From the sequence record KM389300.1: 25,803 nucleotides of DNA. One strand, 5' to 3'. The notes beneath the pieces are model-generated. The model did no database searches. It saw only the letters and a program-made list of their open reading frames with translations, and was not told the origin of the DNA. The stretch comes from Escherichia phage CBA6. Positions 1,756 to 25,716 of this stretch are shown one piece after another (position 1 is the first letter of the stretch; each line of letters begins with the position of its first letter). The position numbers and the translations under genes are program-made.

Positions 1756-1795
1756 CTCCTGTAGATACGCTATGATAAGCCAATGCCTACAGGAG
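1756..1795 (+). promoter_or_regulatory. SD-sequestering hairpin in the leader of the PLP-enzyme gene
   Basis: 9-bp perfect inverted repeat CTCCTGTAG (1756..1764) / CTACAGGAG (1787..1795); the 3' arm contains the SD AGGAG (1791..1795), 7 nt before ATG 1803. Confidence 0.4.
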
Positions 1796-1802
1796 AAATA
1801 GA

Positions 1803-3074
1803 ATGAACGATACACAAATAAAATGTGAAGAGACTTCATCTGGTGTCAACGATTTCGTAAACCACTGGATTGATTTAGTCAACCAAAAAACGATATTCAA
1901 CACTCTTTCACTCAGTCGTGACCAGGTTCACTGGGAAGACTATCTTTACAAACACACCCCGTGCGAACTCGTTGCCAACCCCGAAACCAATCAGCAGGTC
2001 TGGTTCAAGCGTGAAGACTACTTCGCGCCGCTGTCCAATTATGCAAATGGCCAGCAGGGCATTAATGGGAGCAAACTCCGTCAGGCCATCTGGCTCATGA
2101 TGGAGCATCTTAAAGCGGGAGGATCCCCAGATCTTATCCATGGTACTGTCGTTGGTAGTCCGCAGTCCCCTATGGCGACGGCAGTCTCACGGCATTTCGG
2201 CGGCAAGACAACCACTGTGCTGGGTGCCACTAAACCAACCACATGCATGAACCATGATATGGTTTCAATGTCAGCATGGTTTGGTAGTGAATTTAACTTT
2301 GTTGGATCTGGTTACAATAGCACCATTCAGCCGCGCTGTAAGAAACTCATTGAACAATTAAATCCAAAGGCGTATTATCTGGAATATGGCATTACATTGG
2401 ATCATACCGTTCATTCACCAGAACGCATTGCTGGATTCCATATGCTGGGTGGTGAGCAGGTTGCCAATATCCCAGACCATATCACTGATCTGATCATTCC
2501 TGCTGGTTCTTGTAATTCATGCACCAGTATCCTGACAGGTTTGGCGATGCATCCGAAACCAAATCTGAAGAATGTCTATCTGATCGGGATTGGACCTAAC
2601 CGATTAGATTTCATTGAAAGTCGTTTGCGCATTATCGGTAAGCAAGCAAACCTCCCTCACATAACTGATTTCACTCGTCGCTATCACGACAACCCAGACT
2701 ATGTGTATGGTAAGAAGGATCTTCAGCATGCCTCTAAGAGCGTTTCGTTGGCTGGCCTCCTAAGTGGTATCAGGCCAAAGAACGAGCCGGATATCGTGCT
2801 TCCTCGCTTTGAGGTACACCATTGGGATCTTCATACCACTAATTGGGTTCGTTACAACGACCTCATGGATTACCAGTGGGGGGATATTGAGTTGCATCCT
2901 CGTTATGAAGGTAAGGTCATGACATGGATACAGGAACACAAACCAGAATTGCTTAATGAGAACTCATTGTTTTGGATCGTGGGGAGCAAGCCATATCTGG
3001 AAGCGATGAAAGCTGCTTGTCCTGAATTATCAATCCCCGAACATGTCCCTGTGAATGAGTTTGTCCCCAGCTAA
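1803..3074 (+). CDS. PLP-dependent enzyme, ACC deaminase / D-cysteine desulfhydrase fold (tryptophan synthase beta-like, fold type II)
   Basis: Family motifs in order: FKREDYFAP...NGSKLRQ (KRDD...GGNKLRKLE block with candidate PLP lysine), VVGSPQSPMATAVSRHFG (GxxQSNHxR phosphate loop), IIPAGSCNSCTSILTGLA, HPRYEGKVM (DPVYTGKAM block), IVGSKP (HTGG block); 423 aa with a C-terminal extension. Confidence 0.75.
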   Translation: MNDTQIKCEETSSGVNDFVNHWIDLVNQKTIFNTLSLSRDQVHWEDYLYKHTPCELVANPETNQQVWFKREDYFAPLSNYANGQQGINGSKLRQAIWLMMEHLKAGGSPDLIHGTVVGSPQSPMATAVSRHFGGKTTTVLGATKPTTCMNHDMVSMSAWFGSEFNFVGSGYNSTIQPRCKKLIEQLNPKAYYLEYGITLDHTVHSPERIAGFHMLGGEQVANIPDHITDLIIPAGSCNSCTSILTGLAMHPKPNLKNVYLIGIGPNRLDFIESRLRIIGKQANLPHITDFTRRYHDNPDYVYGKKDLQHASKSVSLAGLLSGIRPKNEPDIVLPRFEVHHWDLHTTNWVRYNDLMDYQWGDIELHPRYEGKVMTWIQEHKPELLNENSLFWIVGSKPYLEAMKAACPELSIPEHVPVNEFVPS

Positions 3075-3114: not shown

Positions 3115-3564
3115 ATGAAAACCTTTCTAGAATTTTATCGCGAATCAACGCTACCTGATTTTACGAATATCGTTTTGTATCATGGGTCTAATGTTGAATT
3201 CGATATATTTGATTTTGAAAAATTTGGCCAGACTGACTCTGGTACGATGGGTGCTGGGTTTTACCTGACGGGGGATCCAGAAAAGGCACAGATCTACGCA
3301 GAAAATGCCGTGCGCTATCGTCAATCTGGTGAACCTATTGTCATGGCATTTCGTGTCAAGGCCAAGAAGACTCTTGTAATAGATTCCAACAATGTTTCGG
3401 TGTGGGAAAATAAAATGCGAGAGTTGGGGATAAAGCCTGGTAAGATACATGATAATGTGAAAGAACTTATCAACAAAGGGTTCGATTCCATAGCCTCTAT
3501 AAGTGCCAATAACGTTGAGGAAATGGTGGTGTTTAAGCCAGGGTTGGCGACCAGAGAAGCCTAA
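3115..3564 (+). CDS. putative H-Y-E class ADP-ribosyltransferase (diphtheria toxin / PARP-like minimal catalytic domain), 149 aa
   Basis: YHGS (His23); GAGFYLTGD with Tyr50 and a second Tyr61 exactly 11 residues later (as in DT Tyr54/Tyr65 and PARP1 Tyr896/Tyr907); NNVEEMVVF (Glu135/Glu136) near the C-terminus; function is inferred from motifs only. Confidence 0.5.
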   Translation: MKTFLEFYRESTLPDFTNIVLYHGSNVEFDIFDFEKFGQTDSGTMGAGFYLTGDPEKAQIYAENAVRYRQSGEPIVMAFRVKAKKTLVIDSNNVSVWENKMRELGIKPGKIHDNVKELINKGFDSIASISANNVEEMVVFKPGLATREA

Positions 3565-4058: not shown

Positions 4059-4088
4059 ACAAAGGGGCTTAATGCCCCTTTGTTTTAG
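4057..4088. terminator. bidirectional intrinsic terminator between convergent genes
   Basis: Stem AAAGGGGC (4061..4068) / GCCCCTTT (4074..4081), loop TTAAT; T-tract on both strands; sits between the + gene ending at 4058 and the - gene ending at 4085. Confidence 0.75.
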
Positions 4089-5926: not shown

Positions 5927-6499
5927 TTATTTCTTCAGATCAGGCCACGCACCAGAGGTCGCAGTAGACCCAGCTGGGGGAGCAGACTCAAGATCGGGAG
6001 AACCCGACTGAGTAACAACAGTGGGATCTTTGTTAACCACTTTGACCCCAAACTGTTTGAGAGCATCCACAGCTTGCGCCTTCCGGCTATTGCTTTTGTA
6101 ATGGTTGTACCCCTTGATACCGAATGATGCACTAATTGCTGTCAATAGCGAAGCAGTATACCAATCAGGCGCTGTTTCAAGGGCTTGCATACCATCAATT
6201 ACTGCTTTGATGAAATCCCCTTTATGATACTCGGTGGGGAACATTAGAAGTTCCACAACCGGAGCGATCATAACAAGGATAGCGGGAACAGCCAAAACGA
6301 TTGTCCAGAATTCATCTTTCCAAGATCCGCCGACTTCGGTAATCTTAGAAAGTTCCCATTCTGAAGAAGACTTTATTGCCTCCAGTTTAACATCGTGTTT
6401 AGCCTGAACAATTTCCCGCTTATATTGCACCAAATCAGTCCCAAGATTCCAGAGTTGCTTTAGCGCCCCTGGAATCATGCTCACAAAGGGGATTGCCAT
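5927..6499 (-). CDS. membrane protein (191 aa), central hydrophobic helix; divergent from the DNA polymerase gene
   Basis: Start ATG at 6499 (MAIPFVSM...) with SD GGAG 7 nt upstream; central TM segment FWTIVLAVPAILVMIAPVV; Ser/Thr/Pro-rich C-terminus; ORF extends to 6559 but without SD. Confidence 0.55.
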   Translation of the reverse strand: MAIPFVSMIPGALKQLWNLGTDLVQYKREIVQAKHDVKLEAIKSSSEWELSKITEVGGSWKDEFWTIVLAVPAILVMIAPVVELLMFPTEYHKGDFIKAVIDGMQALETAPDWYTASLLTAISASFGIKGYNHYKSNSRKAQAVDALKQFGVKVVNKDPTVVTQSGSPDLESAPPAGSTATSGAWPDLKK

Positions 6500-6528
6500 T
6501 TTAAACTCCTTGGTCATTGAACGTTCCT

Positions 6529-6568
6529 CGGTTAAATTACGGGGACGTGCTGACGGCACGGTTAACCG
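6529..6568 (+). promoter_or_regulatory. structured leader of the DNA polymerase gene, candidate translational operator
   Basis: Inner hairpin CGTGC (6546..6550) / GCACG (6556..6560) with loop TGACG, nested in an outer stem CGGTTAA (6529..6535) / TTAACCG (6562..6568) whose 3' end abuts the SD GGAG (6568..6571); ATG at 6579. Confidence 0.4.
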
Positions 6569-6578
6569 GAGACAAACA

Positions 6579-9575
6579 ATGACTGTTTTCTATACGAACG
6601 TTGCCCGACAGGGTAACGACCTTCTGATTCGTATCGCAGACGACAACGGCAATCGCCGCATGTTGCGTAAGAAATTCGAACCCACCTTGTATTTACCCAC
6701 AGCTGATTATTCCAAAGTTGAAAAGATTGGCCTCCTCAATGAACCGTTGGTGTCTAAAAAGTTTGCATCAATGCGAGACGCTGACAACTATCTTGAGGAG
6801 TACAAGGAGGTCGAAGGGGCTGCGGTGTATGGACAAACGGATTATGCATATCAATTCATCGCCCATAGTTTTCCTGGGATGATCACACCTGATTATTCAA
6901 ATATCCACATCGCCAACGTGGATATCGAAGTGTTCTCGGCTGGTTGGCGTGACGGAGAAATGACTAAAGGTCCATTCCCACACGCAACGATTGAATCTCA
7001 CACGTTTAAAGGCAGCGAGGCGCGGGTTCGTCGTTTCCATAAGCAAGTACTGGCCAACCATGATTTCGTTCGGGAGCATTTCCCTGGTTCCTTTATTTCC
7101 AATAACGTGACTGACCAATTCCCTATAATTGACAGTAACGGTAAAATCACACAGAACATGAATGCGGCGTTCCCTATTACGCTGATACAGCTCCAAGATA
7201 TGAATACCAATAAATTCTATGTCTGGGGCATGCCGTGTTCCAAGGATCGCCATAAATTCAAATATGACCCCAATGATGAAGAAGTCGGCGGTCTTGAGGT
7301 TGAATATAAAGAATATACGACGGAACAAGATCTGCTTCGCGCCTTCTTAGATTACTGGTCGGAACGTCAATTTGACGGTTGGACGGGGTGGAACATTGAA
7401 ACGTTCGATAGCCCCTATTTGGTTGAACGAATTATGCAGGTTCTTGGTGAATCTGAAGCCCAGCGCCTCAGTCCTTGGGGTAAACTCAAGAAACGTTTCA
7501 TCAAAGACCGTAAAGGCGACGTGACTTCTTATCAATTCGTGGGTTGTCCTATGATGGACTACATGCAAGTTTACAAGAAACACACTTACACCACCCGCGA
7601 AAAATACTCACTGGACTGGATCGCTTATTGTGAACTCGGTGAGAAGAAGTTGGATTATAGTGAAAGCAAATCATTGTATGACCTTTATTTCAATGATTAT
7701 TGCAAGCATACGCGATATGGTATCAAAGACGTCAAGCTGGTGTGGCGCTTAGAACAAAAACTGCGTTTGATACAGCTGATGTTTGTATTGGCTTATCGCA
7801 CTAAATCCAACTATGAAGACGGTCTCGGCACTGTAGCACCGTGGCTGGCAATGTGCTATTATCGTCTTTATGAGAAGGGGATTGTCCCGAAAATCCAGCG
7901 CGTCTATGATGGGCCAACAGATTTTGAAGGCGCATATGTCATGGAGGTTGCCCCAGGGATATATTTCTGGGTCTTCTCTGAGGACTTAAACTCCCTGTAT
8001 CCCCACATCATACAGCAATACAACCTTGGTCCAGAGACTATCGTTTCTGATAAGCACACACGCCGTGATATTATTGAGGCCATGTGTGAGGAATTGACCA
8101 AAGCGATGAATGATATGACAACGCCGATGAATAAACGTCGTCATCTCAAAAATCTTCACGACAAGTTGCAGCGTGCTATTGATGAACGCATACAAGTTGT
8201 TGATGAATTGGTCGCGCTGGGCGAATTCCATTTTGAAACACTACGCCGATATAACGTTTCGTTTACCCCGAACGTTCAGTTCTTCAGTAATGAGAAGATG
8301 TCCTTCCTTTCCGAAATTATGCGAGGCATATACGCTGACCGTAAAGGAGAGAAAGCAACTGGCCTGAAGTATGAGCAATGGGCTGGTTGGTGTAAGGAAA
8401 TGTCTAAAGGTGATTTCCACCTTGAATCCGCCATGAAGTCTCGTTTCTACGATCCTGAATGGTATGAAGAACACAAGCACATCGATCTTGATCACCTGAC
8501 TGAAGTCATGCACAAGTGGGAAGATCTGGGGGTTGCTCAAGATACGTTACAACAAGGTCTGAAGATCTTGATGAACGCAGGTTATGGCGCAATCTCCAAC
8601 GTCTGGTTTAAAGAATACTTCAACATCAACATCGCTGAAGCAATCACCACTTCCGGCCAGCTGATCAACAAATGGAACAAACGCCACACCGATGATTATC
8701 TGAACAAACTTTGCGGCACTACTGGTCAGGATTTTGTTATCGCGGGTGATACTGACTCCAACTACATTTGCATTGAACGTCTGGTCAAGCAATTGTGGCC
8801 TGAAGAAAAGGATCATCACAAACTCGTTGATAACATTGACCAATGGATCAAAGAGAATTACCAGCCAAAAACCAGTGAATGGGCGCAGTTGTTGTGTAAT
8901 ACCATGAACGGGTTTGAGCAGCGCATGGTCTGGGAACGTGAGGTCATCGCATCGTCTGCTGTATGGCGAGCCAAGAAGATGTATTGCATGGCAGTATACG
9001 ATAGCGAAGGCATCAAGTATGAGAAGCCAAAGATCAAATTCAAAGGTCTGGAAGCGCGTAAATCTACAACGCCGGAATGGTGTCGTGAGCGTCTGGTTAA
9101 ATGCTATGAGAAAGTTCTGCTGGGGACGGAGGCTGAAGTTCAGGAATTGATCGCGGGTTATAAGAAGGAATATATGGAATTAACCGTGGATGATATTGCT
9201 CAAGCCTCTGGCGTTAGTGATATTGAGAAGTGGTTAGACGGCAACGGAAATTATATCAGTGGCACACACTTTGCTGCCAAGGCTTGTATTATGTACAACA
9301 AGCTGATAGACAAGCATGAAGACCTCGGTCTCCCGCCGATAGAATCTGGCGATAAGGTTAAAATCATTAACCTGAAACCTGGGAACCCTGTGGGGAACGA
9401 CCGCATAGCCTTCCCTGACTTCCTCCCTCCGGAGTTGGGGCTGGATAAGTGGGTAGATTACCACACCACGTTTGAAAAGACCTTCATAGAGCCGATTCAG
9501 TCTATTCTAGACGTGGTTGGTTGGTCTCACAAACGTCGAGTTAATCTGTTGTCCATGATGGGCAAGAAAGGTTGA
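6579..9575 (+). CDS. DNA polymerase, family B (T4 gp43-like), 999 aa
   Basis: N-terminus MTVFYTNVARQGN... resembles T4 gp43 MKEFYISIETVGN...; exo I motif VDIEVF; motif A DLNSLYPHII; motif C IAGDTDSNYI; start at 6579 chosen for SD GGAG (6568..6571) rather than the SD-less ORF start at 6477. Confidence 0.93.
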   Translation: MTVFYTNVARQGNDLLIRIADDNGNRRMLRKKFEPTLYLPTADYSKVEKIGLLNEPLVSKKFASMRDADNYLEEYKEVEGAAVYGQTDYAYQFIAHSFPGMITPDYSNIHIANVDIEVFSAGWRDGEMTKGPFPHATIESHTFKGSEARVRRFHKQVLANHDFVREHFPGSFISNNVTDQFPIIDSNGKITQNMNAAFPITLIQLQDMNTNKFYVWGMPCSKDRHKFKYDPNDEEVGGLEVEYKEYTTEQDLLRAFLDYWSERQFDGWTGWNIETFDSPYLVERIMQVLGESEAQRLSPWGKLKKRFIKDRKGDVTSYQFVGCPMMDYMQVYKKHTYTTREKYSLDWIAYCELGEKKLDYSESKSLYDLYFNDYCKHTRYGIKDVKLVWRLEQKLRLIQLMFVLAYRTKSNYEDGLGTVAPWLAMCYYRLYEKGIVPKIQRVYDGPTDFEGAYVMEVAPGIYFWVFSEDLNSLYPHIIQQYNLGPETIVSDKHTRRDIIEAMCEELTKAMNDMTTPMNKRRHLKNLHDKLQRAIDERIQVVDELVALGEFHFETLRRYNVSFTPNVQFFSNEKMSFLSEIMRGIYADRKGEKATGLKYEQWAGWCKEMSKGDFHLESAMKSRFYDPEWYEEHKHIDLDHLTEVMHKWEDLGVAQDTLQQGLKILMNAGYGAISNVWFKEYFNINIAEAITTSGQLINKWNKRHTDDYLNKLCGTTGQDFVIAGDTDSNYICIERLVKQLWPEEKDHHKLVDNIDQWIKENYQPKTSEWAQLLCNTMNGFEQRMVWEREVIASSAVWRAKKMYCMAVYDSEGIKYEKPKIKFKGLEARKSTTPEWCRERLVKCYEKVLLGTEAEVQELIAGYKKEYMELTVDDIAQASGVSDIEKWLDGNGNYISGTHFAAKACIMYNKLIDKHEDLGLPPIESGDKVKIINLKPGNPVGNDRIAFPDFLPPELGLDKWVDYHTTFEKTFIEPIQSILDVVGWSHKRRVNLLSMMGKKG

Positions 9576-9588
9576 TTCAATAAAACAA

Positions 9589-9608
9589 AGGGGGATATAA
9601 TTCCCCCT
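9589..9608 (+). terminator. hairpin after the DNA polymerase gene, possible terminator
   Basis: Stem AGGGGGA (9589..9595) / TCCCCCT (9602..9608), loop TATAAT; preceded by TTCAATAAAA (9576..9585); T-tract is weak. Confidence 0.45.
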
Positions 9609-9635
9609 GTTATCCCTTTGACAACAGGTATTGTT

Positions 9636-9980
9636 ATGAAACTCAATAAGATTCTTCTGGTGTGTGCTCTGGCTTTCTCTACCACTGCATGCTCTACCCT
9701 TCTGGACGTTGCGTCTACTGTTGACCTCGATGCGCCGACGTTCACCAATCAGCAAGCGGTGAATAAGATGGAAGACACCATCAAGGCACATGCAGCTTTG
9801 GACAACACCACTCCTGGTCCGTTGCAAACTGTTTGCAATTATGATGATTCCATCCAGGAAGATGAAACCTATCACTGCACCACTTACGTGAAGGAATCTT
9901 CTGTGGTTCTGTATGCCGATTGCACCGAAGAGCAATGCACCGCAACGGGTTATGACAATGTGGAGAAATCTGATGAATAA
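9636..9980 (+). CDS. putative lipoprotein (114 aa)
   Basis: ATG at 9636; N-terminus MKLNKILLVCALAFSTTAC resembles a signal peptide with a lipobox-like Cys; acidic, Cys-containing mature part; the ORF track start at 9618 is TTG. Confidence 0.5.
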   Translation: MKLNKILLVCALAFSTTACSTLLDVASTVDLDAPTFTNQQAVNKMEDTIKAHAALDNTTPGPLQTVCNYDDSIQEDETYHCTTYVKESSVVLYADCTEEQCTATGYDNVEKSDE

Positions 9981-10755
9981 TCACGTTGGTCTGTATGACG
10001 CATGTTCTAAAATTGGCGGGTTATATCGCGTTCTGGTGGATGTGGATTTGACTCTGGTTGATTCCCTATCGCCGTGGGTTGAATGGTTCAATATTTCTAA
10101 TTCTAAAGCCGCTGCGGAAAATATGGGATGTCACGACTACCCATCTGAATTTCAACCAATCACCAAAGAGTGTTATATGTCACACGCTGGTGATCTGGCG
10201 ATCCTCATGCGTGAACGCGCGCATCCGGCCTGGTTAACGCGCCGTGTATTCGTTGCTGGTCAGTGGATGGATTCGCCAACAGGACGTGATCCGATGGATT
10301 GGTGGCGTATGCCTGATCTGTATTCCAGAATGTCACCACTGCCAGGGGCTGTTGAATTCCTTACGAATTTAAAGGCCGCTCTCCTTCAGAAGTTTGAGCA
10401 AGTGGAAATGGTGGCTGTTACAAAATGCGAACCGGAACACGAACGCAGCAAGCGTCAGTTCATATACCATCACTTTGAATCGTTGATTAATGGGTTCGTG
10501 AGCACGGATGAAAAGCATCTGCTTGCTGGCGATGTCCTGATCGACGACAATCCGAAGTATGTTGAGCCGTGTGCCCTGAATAACATCTTCGTCATCTTCG
10601 TCCCTCAGGGCAATTATGAAAAACTGGATCTTTCGAATTGCGAGGATATGCTTTATATTAAGCATGTAGAAGGCCAAAACCACTTTGACTTCTTGAATCG
10701 TAACCTCGATGAAGTGGTGAATCGCCTGGTTTCTCATTATCAATATGTCCGATAG
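9973..10755 (+). CDS. HAD-superfamily phosphatase, 5'(3')-deoxyribonucleotidase-like (260 aa)
   Basis: Start ATG 9973 with SD GGAG (9962..9965), overlapping the upstream stop; HAD motif I VLVDVDLTLVD (DxDxT) and motif IV GDVLIDDNP. Confidence 0.65.
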   Translation: MNNHVGLYDACSKIGGLYRVLVDVDLTLVDSLSPWVEWFNISNSKAAAENMGCHDYPSEFQPITKECYMSHAGDLAILMRERAHPAWLTRRVFVAGQWMDSPTGRDPMDWWRMPDLYSRMSPLPGAVEFLTNLKAALLQKFEQVEMVAVTKCEPEHERSKRQFIYHHFESLINGFVSTDEKHLLAGDVLIDDNPKYVEPCALNNIFVIFVPQGNYEKLDLSNCEDMLYIKHVEGQNHFDFLNRNLDEVVNRLVSHYQYVR

Positions 10756-10764
10756 GAGCACATC

Positions 10765-11070
10765 GTGCAAGAACAAAATAAAGTTGTAGAAAGCCCTGAC
10801 AAGCGTTCCGGTGACAGTGATATGGATGGTATCATTATCCATGTAAACAACTTCATCCGTAATCAGAATCCACCAACTTCCGTTGGCGCAGCGTTGGAAT
10901 TAAAACGAGTTCTGATTGAAAACGGTATGGCACCTGATGACGACGAAATTTTCTATAACTTTGATGACCAGTATAAAGTGAAGTTTGTTGAGAATGGTCA
11001 TCCGCAAGTTGCCGTGTTTTGGGCACCTTGGTTGGGTGGAGTGAGTTGGCGCATTGAGGATGCTGCATAA
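10765..11070 (+). CDS. hypothetical protein (101 aa)
   Basis: GTG start at 10765 with SD TAGGAG (10753..10758); stop overlaps the kinase start (TAATG at 11068..11072). Confidence 0.5.
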   Translation: MQEQNKVVESPDKRSGDSDMDGIIIHVNNFIRNQNPPTSVGAALELKRVLIENGMAPDDDEIFYNFDDQYKVKFVENGHPQVAVFWAPWLGGVSWRIEDAA

Positions 11071-11984
11071 TGGCAAAGATCATCGTAATCAAAGGAACCA
11101 GCGGCACGGGTAAAGGCACTCGTGTCGTACAGTTCATCGAGTGGCTCCGCACTAAGCTGAAGCCGACTGAATTGTCGTACACTGTTGGGGATAAGACGCG
11201 CTCCTTCGGCCTGAAATTTGAAGAGCTGAAGTTAATCTTCGTCGGCCAATACACAGTGTCCAATAAATCCGGCCTGGCGTCTTGGACCTCTATGGACGCC
11301 ATTCATGCTGCCACAGGCTCTGGGGATATTGCTCGCGACCTCGTCAAGGGTTGGCTGGCTCAGGGATATACCCTGGTGTGTGAGGGCGAACCTCTGATGC
11401 TGTCGGACAAGTGGCGTCCTGAATGGATGTTCAATAACTATCCGATTGATTCTTTGGCGCTGCTGTACTTTGCATATCCAGACCGCTATCAGTACGATGC
11501 CCGCATCCGTGGACGCTCTGGTAAAGAAGCGGGGGATTCCGGCTGGTCGCGCAACGAATCTTACTCCAAGGAGTTCGAGAAGTCCAAGGCTGAAATGCTG
11601 GCGCTTGGCTGGAATGTTGCCGTGGATGATTACAGTGGGCAAGACGTTTTGTACCACCAAACGGCTACGAACACCCAAGAATTCAAGACTGGGAATGATA
11701 GCGAATTGGCTATGTTGCCGTTCGACGCCCCGTTGTGGGTGGTGGGTAATGCTATCTATCATCAGCTTGGCACAGTTTGCCGCGCTAACAATCTGATGTC
11801 GAAAGACTTCTACGGCTATTGCGAAACCAATCCGATGACGCGTGAAGTCGGCGGTCAGGATCCTTTGGCTCACAGAGTGCCTGAGAAGCCGCAGAAGGCA
11901 TCCAAAACTAAAAACAAGGCCGTCGCCAAGGAAGAACCAAAGACCTCATCCGTGTCCCTTCTGGGGCTAATGCGTAAGGTGTAG
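11070..11984 (+). CDS. P-loop kinase, NMP-kinase-like Walker A; candidate nucleic-acid (5-hydroxymethyl-pyrimidine DNA) kinase
   Basis: N-terminal Walker A GTSGTGKGT (the GxxGxGKGT form typical of adenylate/NMP kinases) at residues 9-17; 304 aa; C-terminal tail KTSSVSLLGLMRKV matches the polymerase tail. Confidence 0.7.
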   Translation: MAKIIVIKGTSGTGKGTRVVQFIEWLRTKLKPTELSYTVGDKTRSFGLKFEELKLIFVGQYTVSNKSGLASWTSMDAIHAATGSGDIARDLVKGWLAQGYTLVCEGEPLMLSDKWRPEWMFNNYPIDSLALLYFAYPDRYQYDARIRGRSGKEAGDSGWSRNESYSKEFEKSKAEMLALGWNVAVDDYSGQDVLYHQTATNTQEFKTGNDSELAMLPFDAPLWVVGNAIYHQLGTVCRANNLMSKDFYGYCETNPMTREVGGQDPLAHRVPEKPQKASKTKNKAVAKEEPKTSSVSLLGLMRKV

Positions 11985-12192: not shown

Positions 12193-12543
12193 ATGAAAAT
12201 TCTTATTCCACGCAATGCCATTGCTATTGCTGTTGACTATCGTGGCGATGCCAATATGATTAACGCTGTCCGATATTATCCGGAACAGAATAAAATCATT
12301 CCCCAATTCCAGCTGAACACCAATCCATCTTCTAAAGATTTCGGTGCATGGCGGCAAATTGGGTTGGCACGGACTCAGGTTAATGCCCAGCATTATATTT
12401 CTGAAAAAACGAAAACCGCCAAGCAAATCTGGGTAGTATCCAATGACCGTCGGTTCCTTCCAATTTGGTCTTTGGGCCAGCCCGTTTTAAACCCTGAAGA
12501 TATCCAACTCGAAGCCGAGGTGAAGGATGACGCATCTATCTAA
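12193..12543 (+). CDS. hypothetical protein (116 aa)
   Basis: ATG at 12193 with SD AGGA (12183..12186); the ORF track start at 12169 is TTG. Confidence 0.5.
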   Translation: MKILIPRNAIAIAVDYRGDANMINAVRYYPEQNKIIPQFQLNTNPSSKDFGAWRQIGLARTQVNAQHYISEKTKTAKQIWVVSNDRRFLPIWSLGQPVLNPEDIQLEAEVKDDASI

Positions 12544-13762
12544 AATGCCGACAGGTTATACGCCTCCGGCTGAATGGAAGTACCCAATTGATTTGTCAAT
12601 CGATTATCGTAAGCCAGAGAATCGGATGTATCTGCTCAAAGCATGGGTGGAGGCGCTGTCGTATACGGAAGAACACAACCAACAAGTTCGTCTGATGGAT
12701 TATGCGATTGAAGTCACTGAAGGCATTACGCAGCTTGAGAAGATCGAGCGCAAGATCTGGATGGCGTTCCTTTGGGGCTGTTGTTATAATGGGATTGGCC
12801 CATGGACGATTTATAGTGAGTTTCCTGTACCGCCTCAGTCACCACAAGAGTTCAAGCGATTCTGTGATTGGTATAACCTGAACTTCGAGCGTATGCGATT
12901 CGATACTGATTGCCGCTATCGCAAATCGAAGATGATCCCGTGTGTTCAGTCCTACATTGATTGGCTGGCTGGTCGTACTCAGATGGATGCTTTCCGTCCG
13001 TTGTTGGAGACTAAACTGCAAAGTGATCAATTCGTTAAGCTATGGGACACGGCTATGGGGTGGAAATACTTCGGTCGCCTGAGCGCCTGGAACTTCCTGG
13101 AAGCCCTGAACATGGTATTCGGCAACATGTATCAGATCGACGTCCCTGGGTTCATGTTGCGTGACCGTGATGGTAGTGAGTCCAACCGCAACGGCGCGGC
13201 ATTCTTGTCAAACCGTGACGACTGGGTGACCAAGCACGGAAAGAAAAAGATCAACGGCTGTCCTATCACCGATGAAGAATGCGACATCCTTGAGGCTGAT
13301 CTTGAACAGGCATTCAAAGATTGTGTCGCCGAGTTTGGTCACATCACGTTCATCAATCGTTTGAACTTTGAGACTTCCGGCGCTTGTTGGCTTAAGAAAT
13401 TCTTCCGTCTGAAAAACACTCGTTACATCGGGTGGGATGCCGAGCGTACTTGGGATGAGATCGACTACATGGAACGCATCTGGCCTGAGTACTCCTGTAA
13501 GGCATTATGGGAAGCCCGTTCCCTCTGGCTACCAGATACCCTGTTATGCGAAAAAGCTCCTGCAGGGCACGTTCCTGGCGTCCAGAAGTGGAAGATGCCT
13601 GTGTTCTTTGAGACGGGTGTTCCTCTACATATATGGCACCTGCAGCAGGGTACGCGTTGGGAACCATCTGAGGTTTACACTAATCTGAAAATGCCCGTCC
13701 GGAAGATAGATGACAATCCGAAGTCGACCAGTGTAAACCTCATGTCTTTGTTGAAACGATGA
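12527..13762 (+). CDS. hypothetical Trp-rich enzyme (411 aa); candidate DNA base-modifying transferase carrying the polymerase-like C-terminal tail
   Basis: ATG at 12527 with SD GAGGTG (alternative in-frame ATG at 12545); no motif I can name; C-terminal tail KSTSVNLMSLLKR matches the polymerase and kinase tails; two genes downstream of the kinase. Confidence 0.6.
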   Translation: MTHLSKMPTGYTPPAEWKYPIDLSIDYRKPENRMYLLKAWVEALSYTEEHNQQVRLMDYAIEVTEGITQLEKIERKIWMAFLWGCCYNGIGPWTIYSEFPVPPQSPQEFKRFCDWYNLNFERMRFDTDCRYRKSKMIPCVQSYIDWLAGRTQMDAFRPLLETKLQSDQFVKLWDTAMGWKYFGRLSAWNFLEALNMVFGNMYQIDVPGFMLRDRDGSESNRNGAAFLSNRDDWVTKHGKKKINGCPITDEECDILEADLEQAFKDCVAEFGHITFINRLNFETSGACWLKKFFRLKNTRYIGWDAERTWDEIDYMERIWPEYSCKALWEARSLWLPDTLLCEKAPAGHVPGVQKWKMPVFFETGVPLHIWHLQQGTRWEPSEVYTNLKMPVRKIDDNPKSTSVNLMSLLKR

Positions 13763-25137: not shown

Positions 25138-25716
25138 ATGAAATCTTTAGTTAAACGAAAAGTAGAAGTATCCCTTAATGCGCATATTGAAATGCTACAA
25201 CAATTGGTTCTAGATGCGTATGAAATTCAAAAAGATCGCCGGATTCGTCACGACCTTGATCCCGCAGACAGTGGGAGCATGCTCTACTATCGAATGCTTC
25301 GCCAGACTGGTCACACTGCGGCGTTAAAGAAACTCCTTTCTGAAAAATTCCAAATTGAAAATGACATCGACGTATTCGGTGTATTTCACACTGCGGCGTT
25401 AAAGAAACTCCTTTCTGAAAAATTCCAAATTGAAAATGACATCGACGTATTCGGTGTATTTCACACTGCTCGTGAACGTGATACGTTTTTCACTCAATCG
25501 AAAAATGTAACCACAGGGGAGCAGTATGAAAAATTTGATCGAAAAGAGAAAACGTCGACCATGGCCAATTTTATGGGAACCAAAATCGACAAGGCCAATA
25601 TCATCGTGTTTTCAGATACTCTGCATGATGCTAAGCGCCTTTCCGCTGCCCATCAAATGTTAAAAGATAATCGCAGCTGCTTTACAAATTTGACTTTAGT
25701 AGTGTTTCTGGGCTAG
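25138..25716 (+). CDS. hypothetical protein (192 aa) containing a perfect 25-aa tandem duplication
   Basis: ATG at 25138 with SD GAGG (25124..25127); internal repeat HTAALKKLLSEKFQIENDIDVFGVF x2 encoded by identical 75-bp units. Confidence 0.6.
   Translation: MKSLVKRKVEVSLNAHIEMLQQLVLDAYEIQKDRRIRHDLDPADSGSMLYYRMLRQTGHTAALKKLLSEKFQIENDIDVFGVFHTAALKKLLSEKFQIENDIDVFGVFHTARERDTFFTQSKNVTTGEQYEKFDRKEKTSTMANFMGTKIDKANIIVFSDTLHDAKRLSAAHQMLKDNRSCFTNLTLVVFLG
25312..25461 (+). repeat. perfect 75-bp direct tandem duplication (2 copies), in frame within a CDS
   Basis: 25312..25386 and 25387..25461 are identical base for base; each copy begins CACACTGC, and the same 8-mer follows the second copy at 25462. 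Confidence 0.9.

Follow-up and report, generated by a model that had tools for sequence, protein, structure and literature searches.

The window analysed here is the whole stretch of 25,803 nucleotides from Escherichia phage CBA6 (sequence record KM389300.1). In the list of its open reading frames, a frame of 423 amino acids running from ATG to stop occupies exactly the span 1803..3074 on the + strand. The features assigned at and just upstream of its 5' end, together with the gene itself, are the following.

1791..1795, + strand: AGGAG ribosome-binding site, read from the sequence, 7 nt before the ATG at 1803.
1803..3074, + strand: gene for a predicted PLP-dependent 5-O-serinylthymidine (DNA) decarboxylase of 423 amino acids, assigned as the orthologue of Salmonella phage ViI gp226 (Vi01_182, YP_004327553) on the basis of identity, synteny, PHROG, Pfam and a structural model.
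1812..1886, + strand: hypervariable N-terminal tail (codons 4-28), placed outside the catalytic fold by DNA alignment, tblastn, homologue alignment and the model.

A chance reading frame was ruled out by the presence of the gene in 346 phage records (tblastn) and by the match of the protein to PHROG 3650 (E = 2.5e-241). The DNA of phages ViI and SeF3a was aligned with the window, and the 80 nt upstream of the gene, the AGGAG and the ATG were found to be near-identical, with one mismatch; since these elements are common to ViI and SeF3a, position 1803 was taken as the true start. A downstream start, raised because most relatives align only from residue 29, was rejected because residues 2-98 contain no in-frame Met and because ViI shares this ATG together with its ribosome-binding site and upstream region. 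A scan for promoters and terminators in the vicinity returned no more hits than shuffled sequences did, and a hairpin at 4061-4081 was its sole noteworthy feature.

The gene order around 1803..3074 is the same in ViI and in Salmonella phage SeF3a (Kuttervirus), and SeF3a is 99.7% identical to the window over the gene. The window is DNA of a Kuttervirus-type, ViI-like phage of the Ackermannviridae. The protein was aligned with ViI gp226 (YP_004327553) without gaps over residues 29-422 at 93% identity, 26 of the 394 aligned positions being different and 378/394 being positives. The two proteins are of similar length (423 amino acids here, 424 in ViI), their position and neighbours are the same, and their predicted Schiff-base lysines (K91 and K92, respectively) correspond. 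On this sequence and gene-order evidence the product of 1803..3074 is identified as the syntenic orthologue of ViI gp226.

The differences from ViI gp226 consist of the 26 scattered substitutions and of residues 4-28, which are of unrelated sequence. In the DNA alignment with ViI, similarity is wholly lost from codon 4 to codon 28, with both flanks near-identical. For most Kutterviruses the tblastn match begins at residue 29, and distant homologues are without the tail altogether; in the AlphaFold model its pLDDT is 47-72. The complete replacement of these 25 N-terminal residues and the substitutions elsewhere could be read as signs of an inactive or diverged copy, in which case the DNA of this phage would carry O-serinylthymidine or another end product. 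This is scarcely credible: the open reading frame is intact, the substitutions are mostly conservative, and the tail concerned differs from one family member to the next or is missing, and is disordered in the model. All 33 of 33 family-invariant residues are also present, a count to be read with the fact that invariance was computed with this protein as the reference row. No functional difference from ViI gp226 is expected.

The preliminary description, made from the sequence alone, had placed the protein in the fold-type II PLP family, and this was borne out by several searches. The Pfam family PALP (PF00291) was matched over residues 50-275 with E = 1.5e-7 and 31.5 bits, just short of the gathering score (35 bits); precomputed PF00291 matches exist for several close homologues. 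A family profile search of the PDB matched ACC deaminase (1rqx, E = 2.3e-5) and D-cysteine desulfhydrase (4d8t, E = 1.8e-3), with no dehydratase among the matches. Only the family profile reached these two enzymes, the single-sequence search of the PDB having returned noise only (E>=0.21). The NCBIfam scan gave no family at E<=1, including the curated equivalog models of ACC deaminase, D-cysteine desulfhydrase and the dehydratases. PDB sequence and profile searches and the literature yielded no solved structure of any gp226-family member.

The AlphaFold model (pLDDT 90, pTM 0.88) was compared with the PDB using Foldseek, which returned 342 matches at E<=0.001; the best 50 of the 342 were all fold-type II enzymes. 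D-cysteine desulfhydrase and ACC deaminase were on top, matched over the full target length with E of ~5e-11 to 4e-9 and TM on target of 0.58-0.70, and threonine/serine dehydratases were weaker (TM on target 0.46-0.57). The protein is therefore a fold-type II PLP enzyme of two-domain alpha/beta architecture, nearest to the ACC deaminase/D-cysteine desulfhydrase clade.

The motif blocks quoted earlier are all present: FKRED at residues 68-72, NGSKLRQ at 88-94, VVGSPQSPMATAVSRHFG at 116-133, HPRYEGKVM at 365-373 and IVGSKP at 392-397. Invariance was counted in homologue alignments of n=38 and n=56 sequences, with identity down to 41%. The following elements of the catalytic fold were located.

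2073..2075, + strand: codon of Lys91 (GSKLR), the predicted internal-aldimine (Schiff-base) lysine for PLP, invariant in the 38 and in the 56 homologues of the alignments.
2157..2165, + strand: Ser119-Pro120-Gln121, counterpart of the Ser78-Asn79-Gln80 loop of ACC deaminase; in the profile alignment SPQ falls on SNQ of 1rqx and 1f2d.
2493..2543, + strand: IIPAGSCNSCTSILTGL, residues 231-247, counterpart of the phosphate-binding loop and helix, aligned with VVCCVTGSTTAGILAG of ACC deaminase 1f2d.
2649..2807, + strand: variable internal insertion relative to ACC deaminase and D-cysteine desulfhydrase, residues ~283-335, poorly modelled.
2895..2915, + strand: HPRYEGK, residues 365-371, counterpart of DPVYEGK (Tyr294/Glu295) of ACC deaminase, aligned to residues 291-297 of 1rqx.

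Conservation of the GSKLR lysine had been singled out for checking. K91 is invariant in all 56 homologues of the larger alignment, opens helix 89-104 of the model and aligns with K51 of ACC deaminase 1rqx, with K92 of ViI gp226 and with K36 of Pseudomonas phage M6 gp52. Alignment thus points to Lys91 as the conserved Schiff-base lysine, a role that is predicted. In ViI gp226 the lysine K92 is named by PMC8989533; neither a lysine mutant nor a structure of gp226 was found in the literature.

The block VVGSPQSPMATAVSRHFG had been described as the phosphate-binding loop; it aligns instead with a 21-residue block of ACC deaminase that holds the Ser78/Asn79 loop. Within it S119, P120 and Q121 are invariant across the homologues, and the Pro stands where ACC deaminase has Asn79. 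In the Ser78-Asn79-Gln80 loop of ACC deaminase the Asn contacts the cofactor. The ACC deaminase stretch VVCCVTGSTTAGILAG is the one that we take to be the phosphate-binding loop of fold-type II enzymes. In the corresponding region here, IIPAGSCNSCTSILTGL, G235 and N238 are invariant and S236 and S239 nearly so in the homologue alignments. In the HPRYEGK motif, H365, Y368, E369 and K371 are invariant in the same alignments.

An 80-90-residue C-terminal extension relative to the bacterial enzymes had also been proposed, and is absent. The extra length was divided using as anchors K51 and YEGK 294-297 of the 338 residues of ACC deaminase and K91 and YEGK 368-371 of the 423 residues here. The lysine-to-YEGK spacing is 277 residues here versus 243 in 1rqx, and this motif spacing rules out a C-terminal extension: the extra ~85 residues comprise ~40 at the N-terminus, ~34 internally and ~11 at the C-terminus. 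Among the homologues the internal insertion ranges in length from 0 to ~55 residues (alignment columns ~345-400), and pLDDT falls to 52-58 at residues ~301-330 inside it.

Two further genes of the window belong to the pathway in which ViI gp226 acts.

11070..11984, + strand: 5-hmdU DNA kinase, orthologue of ViI gp243, first post-replicative step; 99% identical to YP_004327565, Pfam HMUD2 (PF18747) 559.6 bits.
12527..13762, + strand: serine:DNA transferase, orthologue of ViI gp247 (aGPT-Pplase2/AADT), which makes O-SerT; 100% identical to YP_004327568, Pfam ADDT (PF18724) 197.6 bits.

Both lie ~8-9.5 kb from 1803..3074 within the window. These pathway partners, at 99-100% identity, are shared with ViI, as are the gene's start codon and the sequence before it with the ribosome-binding site. 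Kinase activity of ViI gp243 and activity of ViI gp247 with L-serine have been shown (PMC8989533). Homologues of the 1803..3074 protein at 40-44% identity sit in hypermodification clusters; one of them carries a fused 5-hmdU kinase domain, and another is located between the genes of a Tet/JBP dioxygenase and an amino-acid:DNA transferase.

ViI gp226 itself has been purified and characterized as a PLP-dependent decarboxylase (Lee et al., PNAS 2018, PMC5889632; NAR 2021, PMC8989533). The purified protein is yellow, with absorbance at 410-425 nm, and converts 5-O-serinylthymidine in DNA to 5-(2-aminoethoxy)methyl-dU (5-NeOmdU); with O-SerT DNA a nucleoside of 301 u is obtained that is identical to native 5-NeOmdU (PMC8989533). 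With 13C3,15N-labelled serine exactly one carbon is lost in the presence of gp226, and in lysate mixtures without gp226 a product heavier by 44 u builds up (PMC8989533). 5-NeOmdU has been reconstituted by a five-gene set (PMC5889632) and has been reported in the DNA of ViI and CBA120 (PMC5889632; PMC11721090). In PMC8989533, gp226 was modelled by Phyre2 on the template 1j0a. The subjects of the 2024 and 2026 NAR papers are the transferase and a flavin lyase, not the gp226-type decarboxylase.

The identity of 93% to ViI gp226 suggests that the protein of this phage likewise binds PLP and decarboxylates O-SerT. The gene very probably encodes the last enzyme of the ViI-like (Kuttervirus) thymidine hypermodification pathway, a PLP decarboxylase converting O-SerT to 5-NeOmdU in DNA; none of the results obtained is at odds with this assignment. 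In the proposed sequence of steps, the phage DNA would be replicated with 5-hydroxymethyl-dU instead of dT. Once replicated, this DNA would be phosphorylated on the hydroxymethyl group by the 5-hmdU DNA kinase (11070..11984; a paralogue is encoded at another site of the genome), and the serine:DNA transferase (12527..13762) would let the side-chain oxygen of free L-serine displace the phosphate, giving 5-O-serinylthymidine in DNA. In the 1803..3074 protein PLP would be bound to Lys91 as an internal aldimine; the free alpha-amine of the serine on the DNA would then take the place of the lysine, giving an external aldimine. Departure of the alpha-carboxylate as CO2 would leave the aminoethoxy group of 5-(2-aminoethoxy)methyl-2'-deoxyuridine (5-NeOmdU).

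The fold by itself would also be consistent with the beta/gamma elimination or replacement chemistry envisaged in the preliminary description. A beta-eliminating or beta-replacing lyase could act on a free amino acid or on DNA-bound O-SerT, which it would convert to 5-hmdU and aminoacrylate (and on to pyruvate and ammonia). All of the closest solved structures belong to beta-eliminases or deaminases (D-cysteine desulfhydrase, ACC deaminase, serine/threonine dehydratases), the YEGK motif and lysine block of ACC deaminase are retained, and an O-substituted serine is a classic elimination substrate of fold-type II enzymes, for example O-acetylserine sulfhydrylase. However, the gp226 family has an invariant Pro where the Ser-Asn-Gln loop of ACC deaminase has its Asn, which indicates an active site different from that of the eliminases, and elimination would remove a modification known from ViI. 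The 93%-identical ViI enzyme, moreover, performs alpha-decarboxylation of DNA-bound O-serinylthymidine, with loss of 44 u, exactly one labelled carbon, and formation of the native base (PMC8989533). A lyase is accordingly very improbable here.

Just as improbable is a role in metabolism with a free small molecule as substrate, whether as threonine dehydratase/ammonia-lyase, ACC deaminase, D-cysteine desulfhydrase or a free-serine decarboxylase supplying ethanolamine for transfer to DNA. The names of related GenBank records ('putative threonine dehydratase', 'threonine ammonia lyase', 'PLP-dependent lyase/thiolase'; the SeF3a protein bears a dehydratase name) and the resemblance of the fold in Foldseek speak for such a role. 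These names, however, are automatic fold-based transfers and no NCBIfam equivalog match accompanies them; the threonine/serine dehydratases are structurally more remote than D-cysteine desulfhydrase and ACC deaminase, and homologues are fused to or adjoin DNA-modifying enzymes. Decarboxylation can be placed on the DNA, after transfer, because gp247 transfers serine itself and a carboxylated DNA intermediate accumulates without gp226 (PMC8989533). The earlier suggestion of host-metabolite remodelling found no support, and its alternative, an enzyme tailoring an amino-acid-derived DNA base adduct, corresponds to the activity shown for the ViI orthologue (PMC8989533). Nor is the gene unexpected in a phage replication region, as had been thought: it is conserved among ViI-like phages as a published component of their thymidine hypermodification, with its partners in the window.

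The predicted decarboxylation of O-SerT in DNA by the 1803..3074 protein has a parallel in the one other characterized DNA decarboxylase, M6 gp52 (YP_001294560), a PLP enzyme of the same fold family whose substrate is likewise an amino acid carried by thymine within DNA. Its segment 'VKREDLCAPL...SKIR' aligns with 'FKREDYFAPL...SKLR' here, K36 falling on K91. The relationship is remote (hhalign E = 2.3e-4, 22% identity over 211 columns); M6 gp52 is much shorter, at 278 amino acids, and the hhalign match, which reaches about residue 287 of the present protein, ends ahead of the internal insertion. M6 gp52 acts on C-alpha-glycinylthymidine in the 5-NedU pathway, where the C-linked glycine arises via a radical SAM isomerase that is absent from ViI-like phages (PMC8989533).

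Salmonella DcyD (4d8t) and the ACC deaminases (1rqx, 1tzk, 1f2d, 1j0a) align in the lysine block, the Ser...Gln loop, the phosphate-loop region and YEGK, but at 13-16% identity only, and differ by the ~40 extra N-terminal residues and the ~34-residue internal insertion found here. Their substrate is a free amino acid, which undergoes ring-opening deamination or beta-elimination, whereas enzymes of the gp226 type decarboxylate a residue on double-stranded DNA. It is conceivable, though rather doubtful, that the invariant Ser-Pro-Gln loop, the ~35-50-residue insertion (283-335) and the N-terminal segment adapt a beta-eliminase scaffold to decarboxylation on a duplex DNA base, and that the swapped residues 4-28 tune interaction with a partner or with DNA. 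If true, this would refine the picture of a known enzyme and not amount to a new system.

The gene is real and its predicted function is already known from ViI gp226. An enzyme 93% identical to this one was published in 2018-2021, and this instance therefore adds no new biology. To our knowledge, few other fold-type II PLP enzymes catalyse decarboxylation, and the substrate of the gp226-type enzyme is a polymer. In ViI, 5-NeOmdU stands in place of ~40% of thymidines and many restriction endonucleases are blocked; protection against CRISPR-Cas by DNA hypermodification has also been speculated (review PMC11721090). The gp226-type enzyme completes the DNA hypermodification that shields ViI-like phages from many restriction enzymes.

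The 423-residue open reading frame in the ORF listing of the window runs from ATG to stop at exactly 1803..3074 (+), with an AGGAG site 7 nt before the ATG. The motif blocks quoted in the preliminary description, which had proposed a fold-type II PLP enzyme here, were all found in its translation:

Residues 68-72: FKRED
Residues 88-94: NGSKLRQ
Residues 116-133: VVGSPQSPMATAVSRHFG
Residues 365-373: HPRYEGKVM
Residues 392-397: IVGSKP

The protein matched PHROG 3650 (E = 2.5e-241) and the gene was present in 264 phage records by megablast and 346 by tblastn; it is a real, conserved gene. In most Kuttervirus records only residue 29 onward was matched. The translation start at 1803 is nevertheless correct, and residues 4-28 form a freely exchanged and probably disordered tail, because in the DNA alignment the window and the reference Salmonella phage ViI (NC_015296) have in common the 80 nt ahead of the gene together with its ribosome-binding site, ATG and first three codons, and because the tail is absent from aligned distant homologues and is a low-confidence part of the AlphaFold2 model. 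Codons 4-28 (1812..1886) lack any similarity to ViI, which returns at codon 29, and both flanks of this cassette are near-identical to ViI. The cassette is hypervariable; its counterparts in other Kutterviruses are again unrelated in sequence and differ in length.

The closest DNA match was Salmonella phage SeF3a (99.7% identity; Ackermannviridae, Cvivirinae, Kuttervirus). The remaining matches were ViI-like phages that infect Salmonella, Escherichia, Klebsiella, Dickeya, Serratia and Erwinia; Vibrio phages were more distant relatives. These matches assign the window to a ViI-like phage genome. The ViI gene at the same position (Vi01_182, orf00226, YP_004327553) encodes gp226, to which the window protein aligned ungapped over residues 29-422 with 93% identity. 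Gene order is alike in both, with a tail-needle-knob gene and then one hypothetical gene upstream, and an ADP-ribosyltransferase-like gene and then DNA polymerase downstream. Two further pathway genes were identified:

11070..11984, 5-hmdU DNA kinase, orthologue of gp243 (99% identity to ViI YP_004327565; Pfam HMUD2 '5-hmdU DNA kinase 2', 559.6 bits)
12527..13762, amino acid:DNA transferase, orthologue of gp247 (100% identity to ViI YP_004327568; Pfam ADDT, 197.6 bits)

As judged by orthology, the product of 1803..3074 is the already characterized 5-O-serinylthymidine decarboxylase of the pathway to 5-(2-aminoethoxy)methyl-2'-deoxyuridine (5-NeOmdU). The gene, described earlier as unexpected, is a standard, published part of ViI-like phages; the modification genes are conserved throughout the Ackermannviridae according to a 2024 review (PMC11721090).

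Pfam PALP matched residues 50-275 (E = 1.5e-7, 31.5 bits, just below the gathering score of 35). In the PDB, a profile built from 38 homologues matched two ACC deaminase entries, 1rqx (E = 2.3e-5) and 1f2d, as well as 4d8t, the D-cysteine desulfhydrase of Salmonella (E = 1.8e-3), aligning the GSK lysine with K51 and 'HPtYEGK' with 'DPVYEGK' of ACC deaminase. The AlphaFold2 model (56 homologues; mean pLDDT 90, pTM 0.88) gave D-cysteine desulfhydrase and ACC deaminase chains as top PDB matches over the full target length (E about 5e-11, TM on target 0.65-0.70, identity 13-16%), followed at lower rank by serine and threonine dehydratases, SbnA, CysM and tryptophan synthase beta. Because the PALP, profile and model matches agree, the placement in the ACC deaminase/D-cysteine desulfhydrase clade of the fold-type II enzymes is borne out.

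The candidate PLP lysine of the GSKLR block, K91, is invariant in both homologue alignments (38 and 56 members, down to 41% identity), and the assignment survives the refuting condition set in the preliminary description, lack of conservation of this lysine. K91 corresponds to K92 of gp226 and, by profile comparison (E = 2.3e-4, 22% identity), to K36 of M6 gp52, the other characterized decarboxylase of this kind. The block at residues 116-133, previously read as the phosphate-binding loop, aligns instead with the Ser78/Asn79 loop block of ACC deaminase; here the Ser-Asn-Gln position is occupied by Ser119-Pro120-Gln121, the Pro being invariant in the family. The ACC deaminase segment 'CCVTGSTTAG', which we take to be its phosphate-binding loop, aligns with 'PAGSCNSCTS' at residues 233-242. 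Motif spacing likewise gave no C-terminal extension of the 80-90 residues previously suggested: K51 and YEGK 294-297 in the 338-residue ACC deaminase correspond to K91 and YEGK 368-371 here, distributing the surplus of about 85 residues as ~40 N-terminal, ~34 internal and ~11 C-terminal. The internal insertion lies at roughly residues 283-335; its length in homologues ranges from 0 to about 55 residues, and pLDDT is 52-58 over part of it (about residues 301-330).

Elimination from an O-substituted serine is typical of fold-type II enzymes, which makes beta-elimination structurally attractive here; this reading, close to the beta/gamma elimination or replacement chemistry first proposed, is contradicted by the mass and isotope data of the orthologue gp226, shown to perform alpha-decarboxylation. 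ViI DNA contains 5-NeOmdU, and the nucleoside was reconstituted by treating 5-hmdU DNA with lysates in which gp67, gp160, gp226, gp243 and gp247 were expressed (Lee et al., 2018, PMC5889632). The order of steps was established with purified proteins (Lee et al., 2021, PMC8989533): 5-hmdU in DNA is phosphorylated by kinases, free L-serine is attached via its side-chain oxygen by gp247 to give 5-O-serinylthymidine (345 u), and this is converted by purified gp226 to a 301 u nucleoside identical to native 5-NeOmdU. In the same study exactly one carbon of labelled serine was lost in the gp226 step, a +44 u intermediate built up when gp226 was omitted, purified gp226 was yellow with absorbance at 410-425 nm, and K92 was the predicted Schiff-base lysine in a Phyre2 model based on 1j0a, a Pyrococcus ACC deaminase homologue (PMC8989533). 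No solved structure or lysine mutant of gp226 was found in the literature search. Action on a free metabolite, for which automatic annotations such as 'threonine dehydratase' are the sole support, is contradicted by the step order and by zero NCBIfam matches for the protein. Decarboxylation via K91-bound PLP is the best-supported mechanism on this orthology: PLP carried on K91 would form an external aldimine with the free alpha-amine of the DNA-bound serine, and CO2 would be released to leave 5-NeOmdU. A candidate cause of decarboxylation over elimination is that Pro invariably replaces Asn in the Ser-Asn-Gln loop.

Other features of the window were as follows:

3115..3564 (+), Pfam ART-PolyVal (ADP-ribosyltransferase in polyvalent proteins, 41.1 bits) and DUF3990, directly 3' of the decarboxylase gene
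4061..4081 (both strands), hairpin AAGGGGC...GCCCCTT followed by a T-rich run, between the convergent + block (ends 4058) and - block (starts 4085)
6477..9575 (+), DNA polymerase ORF, 1032 residues as mechanically called, overlapping the start of ORF 5927..6559 (-)
9913..10755 (+), NT5C-like 5'-deoxynucleotidase/HAD hydrolase (33 bits), between DNA polymerase and 5-hmdU DNA kinase
25311..25469 (+), perfect in-frame 75 bp tandem duplication (2.1 copies, 100% match) inside ORF 25138..25716

The first is named ADP-ribose transferase in SeF3a. The hairpin is likely to be a bidirectional terminator. Since ViI annotates 998 residues, the polymerase probably starts at Met35 (6579), which would remove the overlap. 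The 9913..10755 product may serve nucleotide-pool rewiring for 5-hmdU DNA. The duplication repeats 25 residues (HTAALKKLLSEKFQIENDIDVFGVF) in a protein named 'histone-like' in related records; it is either strain-specific or an assembly artefact, because the region is 579 bp here versus 504-505 bp in every one of the 12 best-matching related phages listed, SeF3a and ViI among them.

Metagenome homologues with 40-44% identity to the decarboxylase sit in thymidine hypermodification clusters. One (P0113, 620 residues; contig L004, Logan SRR32390732, 8001..9863) is a fusion of an HMUD2 5-hmdU DNA kinase domain and a PLP decarboxylase domain, neighboured by a second kinase (HMUDK_hel), a thymidylate-synthase-like gene, an HD hydrolase and a dUTPase. 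Another (P0086, 44% identity; contig L005, JGI 3300045970, 7175..11946) has a Tet/JBP dioxygenase on one side and an amino-acid:DNA transferase on the other, and a radical SAM gene is nearby. This cluster suggests that 5-hmU is made there by thymine oxidation in DNA rather than by a dUMP hydroxymethylase. The clusters agree with the fusions and gene combinations of this kind described in PMC8989533, and support a DNA-directed role for the whole decarboxylase family.
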